NCBI RefSeq assembly: GCF_003334255.1
Contig: NZ_QOWU01000035.1
Length of the DNA stretch: 55,376 nucleotides
Strand: one strand, 5' to 3'
Source: Escherichia coli
GTDB lineage: Bacteria > Pseudomonadota > Gammaproteobacteria > Enterobacterales > Enterobacteriaceae
The translations under genes were made by a program, and so were the position numbers. Below the pieces are notes generated by a model that searched no databases, was not told the DNA's origin, and saw nothing but the letters and a program-made list of their open reading frames with translations. Of this stretch, positions 33,656-34,705 are shown in pieces (within the stretch, counting starts at the first letter, position 1; every line of letters starts with the position of its first letter).

Positions 33656-34705
33656 TTAGCCTTGTAACAGAGACAGAACTTGCTGCGGTACCTGGTTGGC
33701 TTTAGACAGCACGGAGTTGCCCGCCTGCTGGATAATCTGCGCTTTCGACATGTTGGACACTTCGGTCGCATAGTCGGCGTCCTGAATACGGGACTGCGCT
33801 TCAGACAGGTTGGTGGTGGTGTTGTTCAGGTTGGTGACCGCAGAATCCAGACGGTTTTGAACGGCACCGAGGGAGGAGCGGAATTTGTCGACTTTAGCGA
33901 TTGCGGCATCCAGTGCTTTTAACGGATCGGCTGTAGCGGCTCCCGCCACTTCCGCTGCACCAACAGTTACCGCCGCCGCCGTACCGGTAATGACTACAGT
34001 GGCTTCCATGTATTTACCGGTTGCAGAATCAACGACCGCATATTTAGTACTGTTAGACGCGGTGTCAGTGTAAGACAGTAAATTGACTTGTTTACCCCTA
34101 GCATCCTTGACATCCGCAGCAGCAATTGCTGTACCATCAGCAGCCGTCAGTTTCGCCGCGCTGAAATCCGCCATGCCGGACACGGTAAATCCTTTCAGAT
34201 TCAAAGTGGTACTGTCGATTTGTTGCAAGCCAATGCTGATCGTCTGGTTATCATTGGCACCAATCTGAATCTTCATCGAATCGTTTTTCGACAGCACGTT
34301 CACACCGTTGAACTGGGTCTGACCAGATACACGGTCAATTTCATCAAGACGGGATTTGATTTCGTCCTGAATAGAAGACAGGTCGGAATCAGAGTTCGTG
34401 CCGGTAGAGGCCTGAACGGTCAGTTCACGAATACGCTGCAAGTTGTTGTTAATCTCTGACAGCGCGCCTTCAGCCGTCTGCGCCAGAGAAATACCGTCGT
34501 TGGCGTTACGTGCGGCCTGAGTCAGACCTTTGATGTTAGAAGTAAAGCGGTTAGCAATCGCCTGGCCCGCGGCGTCATCTTTAGCGCTGTTAATACGCAG
34601 ACCAGAAGAGAGGCGCTCGATAGAAGTCGACAGCGCAGACTGGTTTTTGTTGATGTTGTTCTGAGTGATCAGCGAGAGGCTGTTGGTATTAATGACTTGT
34701 GCCAT
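33656..34705 (-). CDS. fliC: Flagellin (short variant, 349 aa)
   Basis: Conserved flagellin N-terminus MAQVINTNSLSLITQNNINKNQSALSTSIERLSSGLRINSAKDDAAGQAIANRF... and C-terminus ...ANQVPQQVLSLLQG; central variable region only about 80 aa. Confidence 0.93.
   Translation of the reverse strand: MAQVINTNSLSLITQNNINKNQSALSTSIERLSSGLRINSAKDDAAGQAIANRFTSNIKGLTQAARNANDGISLAQTAEGALSEINNNLQRIRELTVQASTGTNSDSDLSSIQDEIKSRLDEIDRVSGQTQFNGVNVLSKNDSMKIQIGANDNQTISIGLQQIDSTTLNLKGFTVSGMADFSAAKLTAADGTAIAAADVKDARGKQVNLLSYTDTASNSTKYAVVDSATGKYMEATVVITGTAAAVTVGAAEVAGAATADPLKALDAAIAKVDKFRSSLGAVQNRLDSAVTNLNNTTTNLSEAQSRIQDADYATEVSNMSKAQIIQQAGNSVLSKANQVPQQVLSLLQG

Follow-up and report, generated by a model that had tools for sequence, protein, structure and literature searches.

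The closest described relative of the gene examined here is the flagellin gene of the H4 antigen of Escherichia coli. fliC has been sequenced from U9-41, the reference strain for H4, and from five further H4/H17 strains; in every case the gene is 1050 bp long and encodes a protein of 349 aa and 36.3 kDa, with nucleotide identities among alleles of 97.6–100% (Beutin et al. 2005, PMC548302). The antigen was found in 88 strains from 20 O groups, and H4 antisera both agglutinate and immobilise cells; for some H4 strains, lower agglutination titres and sequence variants were recorded (PMC548302). A cloned H4 fliC was functional in K-12, and normal helical filaments were co-assembled from H4 flagellin and the 498-aa H48 flagellin (PMC548302). 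In ST131, motility is driven by H4 flagella, as are adhesion, invasion and uptake, and these flagella induce IL-10 more strongly than do H1 or H7 flagella (Kakkanat et al. 2015, PMC4637896).

Solved structures are available for longer E. coli flagellins, namely K-12 H48 (498 aa, PDB 8cxm), H6 (7sn7) and H7 (7sn4). Their D0/D1 segments are almost identical to those of the H4 flagellin, whereas their centres run to 220–330 residues arranged in D2/D3(/D4) domains, as against an 82-residue H4 centre to which they bear no sequence similarity. From this sequence comparison, the filament core, the export signal and the FliS/FliD interfaces should be the same in H4 as in H48, H6 and H7.

The window, meaning the whole stretch of E. 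coli DNA analysed here (55,376 nucleotides), carries fliC in its normal position between fliA and fliD, with fliZ and tcyJ/fliY also downstream of it. Coordinates of this gene, its parts and the other features discussed below are collected in Table 1.

Table 1. Position, strand and basis of assignment of the features discussed, numbered from the first nucleotide of the window.
Feature	Position	Strand	Remarks
IS421 (IS4-family, IS186-like) element end	1..76		abuts cheB
cheB, interrupted by IS421	77-980	minus	cut after codon 301 of 349, then His-Lys-Arg and stop
sigma-28-like site	5202-5228	minus
sigma-28-like site	9788-9814	minus
sigma-28-like site	32436-32462	plus
fliA	32773-33492	minus	flanks fliC on the downstream side
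Intrinsic terminator-like hairpin with T-run	33619..33639	minus	terminator scan; 17 nt past the fliC stop
fliC, H4 allele	33656..34705	minus	intact from ATG to stop, 349 codons plus stop; ORF list, 99.9% nucleotide identity, NF005294
fliC codons 258-349 plus stop, conserved C-terminal D1/D0 segment	33656..33934	minus	near-identity to K-12, H6 and H7; invariant alignment columns
fliC codons 176-257, H4-type hypervariable region	33935..34180	minus	predicted single small beta domain
Sole difference from the canonical H4 allele	34099	minus	codon 203 GGG to AGG, Gly203Arg; relative to O104:H4 and MLI023K1
fliC codons 1-175, conserved N-terminal D0/D1 segment	34181..34705	minus	near-identity to K-12, H6 and H7; invariant alignment columns
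sigma-28 (FliA) class-3 promoter-like site of fliC, TAAAGGTTGTGAGTGACCAGACGATAA	34782..34808	minus	one mismatch to TAAA-N15-GCCGATAA
sigma-28-like site	34882-34908	plus
fliD	34953-36368	plus	flanks fliC, divergent; fliS and fliT on the same side
sigma-28-like site	51313-51339	plus
fliR, truncated	54645..55304	plus	keeps 218 of its 261 codons, after which IS1 supplies Arg and stop; relative to the intact fliR of MLI023K1
IS1 left end (ggtgatgctgccaacttactg...)	55300..55376	plus	thousands of genomes have matching elements annotated as IS1 transposase; the element is cut off by the end of the window

For identification, 5,426 complete E. coli genomes were searched with the nucleotide sequence of fliC, at a minimum coverage of 80%. 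The allele was present at full length in 761 of these (14%), at an identity of at least 99% in 737, and the top matches included strains named O104:H4 (FDAARGOS_348 and FDAARGOS_349). Against the annotated fliC of O104:H4 FDAARGOS_349 (WP_000079759.1, 349 aa), 1049 of 1050 nucleotides matched (99.9%), as they did for dozens of further leading matches, and the same single nucleotide separates the gene from fliC of strain MLI023K1. Both the length of 1050 bp and 349 aa and this level of identity fall within what has been published for H4 alleles. Locus and length are thus shared with the E. coli fliC-H4 of U9-41 (AB028472), of the O104:H4 outbreak strains and of ST131 O25b:H4, with 348 of 349 residues identical; the window differs in having G203R in the outer domain of the flagellin and in carrying fliR::IS1 and cheB::IS421 in the flagellar regulon.

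Our assignment, based on how closely the gene matches fliC of strains designated O104:H4 and on its agreement with the length and description in the literature, is that it is most probably the standard H4 flagellar antigen gene of E. coli with one missense change, G203R (probability roughly 0.93); none of the evidence speaks against it. The protein would then be built like any enterobacterial flagellin: D0 and D1 make up a conserved core, and a small outer domain specific to the type would carry the H4 epitopes. The initial annotation had singled out the gene for its length, and its measurements hold: the open reading frame of 349 codons has complete D0/D1 termini, as seen in the ORF list and in the alignment to the solved K-12, H6 and H7 flagellins; the central region put at about 80 residues measures 82 (176–257, the part unaligned to solved flagellins); and the protein is 149 residues shorter than the K-12 flagellin. 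To call that length unusual was mistaken, given a common, well-characterised H type one nucleotide away from the O104:H4 allele. A flagellin of 349 aa is already known biology and normal for the H4 type, and short length by itself is no flag of anomaly in E. coli fliC. The suggestion that so small a centre would present a reduced antigenic surface has little bearing on a classical serotyping antigen to which agglutinating and immobilising antisera are raised.

The regulatory surroundings of fliC were considered together with the other flagellar genes. Six sites resembling the sigma-28 consensus occur in the window (0.38 expected by chance), five of them upstream of the tar, motA, fliC, fliD and fliL operons. 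That of fliC, recognised by its consensus match alone, lies about 77 nt upstream of the ATG, and the terminator-like hairpin behind the gene has a 9-bp stem with six GC pairs, followed by TTTTTCT. The sixth site lies inside fliZ (32436-32462) and is probably fortuitous. For the regulon, comparison covered the genes within the window, flg genes and flhBAE lying outside it. From fliA to fliQ, six SNPs and no indel in any flagellar gene were found relative to MLI023K1, in which the flagellar genes are annotated as intact, and the FlhD, FlhC, MotA, MotB, CheA, CheW, Tar, Tap and CheR proteins were identical to those of strain G1/2. Outside the flagellar genes, yedD (minus strand) has a 66-bp in-frame deletion at about 38799-38808 relative to O104:H4 FDAARGOS_349 and MLI023K1; flanked by short direct repeats, it removes 22 residues, turning …ERDGNTIEYDGMTMERVDRPTAECAAALD… into …ERDAALD….

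FliR is an essential integral membrane subunit of the FliPQR (FliP5Q4R1) export gate. In cells that lack the gate, hook-basal bodies are incomplete, FlgM is retained, sigma-28 is inhibited and class-3 genes, among them fliC, are not transcribed. In the window, homology to fliR ends at 55299 and IS1 follows, with loss of the last 43 FliR residues; the fliR lesion on which the initial annotation had based its doubts about expression is therefore real. Truncation of FliR after residue 218 of 261 would be expected to cost the cell its export gate, so that hook-basal bodies would not be completed, FlgM would be kept in the cell, sigma-28 would be inactive and the class-3 gene fliC would probably remain untranscribed. 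From the established role of FliR we infer that fliC is probably silent in this isolate. Such an isolate would probably type as non-motile (H-) yet genotype as H4, a combination that is useful to know of in sequence-based serotype prediction.

A competing reading is that fliC-H4 is still expressed and the strain is motile and H4-positive, either through a truncated FliR that is partly functional or through an IS1 junction that is present in a subpopulation. The cut falls near the 3′ end of fliR, leaving 218 codons in place, and flhDC and the other flagellar genes in the window are intact, as are the promoter-like site, the terminator and the coding sequence of fliC. Set against this, assembly is expected, on established knowledge, to be abolished once the last transmembrane segment of FliR is lost; a second insertion sequence interrupts cheB, in keeping with a lineage that is giving up motility and chemotaxis; and the contig end runs cleanly into IS1 with no alternative path visible. 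Continued expression is on balance somewhat unlikely, and silence of fliC is the reading we retain.

Among the complete genomes, several strains have IS1 in fliR, none of them clearly at the same position. The junction in the window was read 77 nt into IS1, a length compatible with a simple insertion or with a rearrangement. At each end of the window stand 76-77 nt of insertion sequence, which look like k-mer overhangs left when short reads are assembled as a graph; the window is probably an entire draft contig with a repeat on either side.

The sole change in fliC was examined for its likely consequences. In the structure models, residue 203 lies in a loop between predicted strands 199–201 and 209–214, and the corresponding alignment column varies among relatives (G, D, P, T, S, A, K, E or N). 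The exact R203 protein was found in other public draft assemblies (e.g. CAM3003476.1 and HAH2833057.1), on about 10 contigs of which the longest is 55,461 bp, while the allele occurred in none of the 5,426 complete E. coli genomes searched. G203R is a genuine polymorphism, rare and at the level of the clone; located in a variable surface loop, it is most likely neutral for assembly.

It could be argued that G203R is instead a functionally meaningful antigenic-escape variant of H4. The substitution is non-synonymous and the only departure from the canonical allele, its residue is predicted to be in the exposed outer domain, R203 recurs in several independent public assemblies, and both reduced agglutination titres and sequence variants have been noted among H4 strains (Beutin et al., PMC548302). 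We consider this improbable: some 10 contigs with R203 stand against hundreds for the canonical protein, complete genomes lack it, and the column is freely variable among relatives. If fliC is silent in the strain, the change may be mere drift. A neutral polymorphism therefore remains the preferred reading of G203R.

To place the central region, residues 176–257 were compared with solved and unsolved flagellins. No meaningful alignment could be obtained to the centres of H48, H6, H7 or other solved flagellins, whereas residues 1–175 and 258–349 aligned end to end, and almost identically, with the D0/D1 segments of 8cxm, 7sn7 and 7sn4. E. coli flagellins of 422–426 aa were also recovered, with 57–65% identity at 100% coverage. 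These were dropped as candidate insertion/deletion relatives of H4 once pairwise alignment placed all of the identity in the termini, which are nearly identical, the centres being unrelated. Some of them combine H4-specific N-terminal variants (STSIERL, LAQTAEG) with an unrelated centre, a pattern that would be in keeping with recombination whose breakpoints lie in the conserved flanking segments.

In structure prediction, the central 82 residues were modelled as a compact beta domain of five strands with a pLDDT of about 90 (81–91 in the full-length model; mean 87.5 for the domain in isolation), and the predicted domain was found to have no similarity to any solved structure and no structural neighbour. 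A whole-chain Foldseek search against the PDB returned only flagellins, matched through D0/D1 and at large rmsd because the monomer model is not in the filament conformation, and was uninformative for the outer domain. The H4 outer domain has no experimental structure, though ST131 and O104:H4 place H4 among the clinically most important H types; a solved structure would fill the small gap left by a predicted domain without structural neighbour. The joint proposition that the H4-type beta domain is an outer-domain fold without a solved representative, and that G203R is an antigenic H4 variant, is put forward tentatively and is in our view unlikely.

Sequence searches with the central region as the only query, run against a collection of 5.8 billion proteins and a library of 1.84 billion representatives, returned only H4-like fragments, one partial flagellin of 58% identity and a few low-complexity matches. 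Full-length H4 proteins are hidden in such searches because clustering places them behind long flagellins with common termini. One match in the AlphaFold database (A0A7W3ZR27), a protein of 140 aa named "Flagellin FliC (Fragment)" and assigned to Streptomyces alkaliterrae, shares 89% identity with the central domain of E. coli H4; it almost certainly entered that assembly as a contaminant from E. coli.

When the full-length protein was used as the query, flagellins of 340–365 aa were recovered that are 74–89% identical over 100% of its length; of these searches, it was this one that proved informative. Their hosts are Enterobacteriaceae bacterium FGI 57, Pantoea, Pluralibacter gergoviae, Enterobacter hormaechei and E. 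asburiae. These short FliC/FljB proteins are homologous to the H4 flagellin over their whole length, central domain included; the aligned centres share 32–75% identity with that of H4, core residues V207, L209, Y212, Y222, A223 and G230 are conserved across them, and several differ in that one of the domain's loops is longer by 5–30 residues. The H4 short form is thus an old outer-domain type common to the 340–365-aa flagellins of Pantoea, Pluralibacter and Enterobacter.

This origin bears on the proposal of a recent, clean in-frame deletion of D2/D3 from a long E. coli flagellin of 500–600 aa, with linker remnants left behind. Both termini are intact around a deficit of 149 residues, and such deletions are viable: an engineered Salmonella FliC without D3 (delta 204–292, PDB 9iwq), which was among the top whole-chain fold matches, has a reduced outer part yet forms filaments. 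A deletion is nevertheless very improbable. The alignment to long flagellins, which the initial annotation had put forward as the way to recognise a clean deletion, was carried out, and the centre shares nothing with theirs or with the 422–426-aa centres; it is predicted with confidence to be a compact beta domain and not a linker; several other genera have orthologous domains of equal size; and the gene has the identical length of 1050 bp in all H4 strains, old and new (PMC548302). For the flagellins compared, the sequence evidence already refutes a deletion, and shared descent of an old outer-domain type is the reading we adopt.

That the 349-aa reading frame is a damaged gene with a non-functional product, shortened by a frameshift, a premature stop or a fusion, is suggested by nothing except its shortness relative to K-12 and is next to impossible, as the gene matches, colinearly and without a gap over 1050 nt, a fliC annotated as intact in hundreds of genomes, PF00669 and PF00700 (Flagellin_N and Flagellin_C) are both on record for the identical protein, the C-terminal D0 ends canonically (...QVLSLLQG), and H4 flagellin is experimentally functional at 349 aa (PMC548302, PMC4637896). 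No internal stop or frameshift was found when fliC was compared base by base with the 1050-bp gene of FDAARGOS_349, which disposes of such a lesion as the cause of the length. In the structure model, long helices were predicted in the N-terminal segment at residues 7–39, 45–100 and 106–129, so that helices occupy both termini (within 7–129 and 261–348). With the NCBIfam models, the protein scored 497.6 bits with NF005294, the FliC/FljB subfamily model, well clear of its cutoff of 387, and fell narrowly short of NF005953, a model for longer flagellins (610 against 619), because its centre is short.
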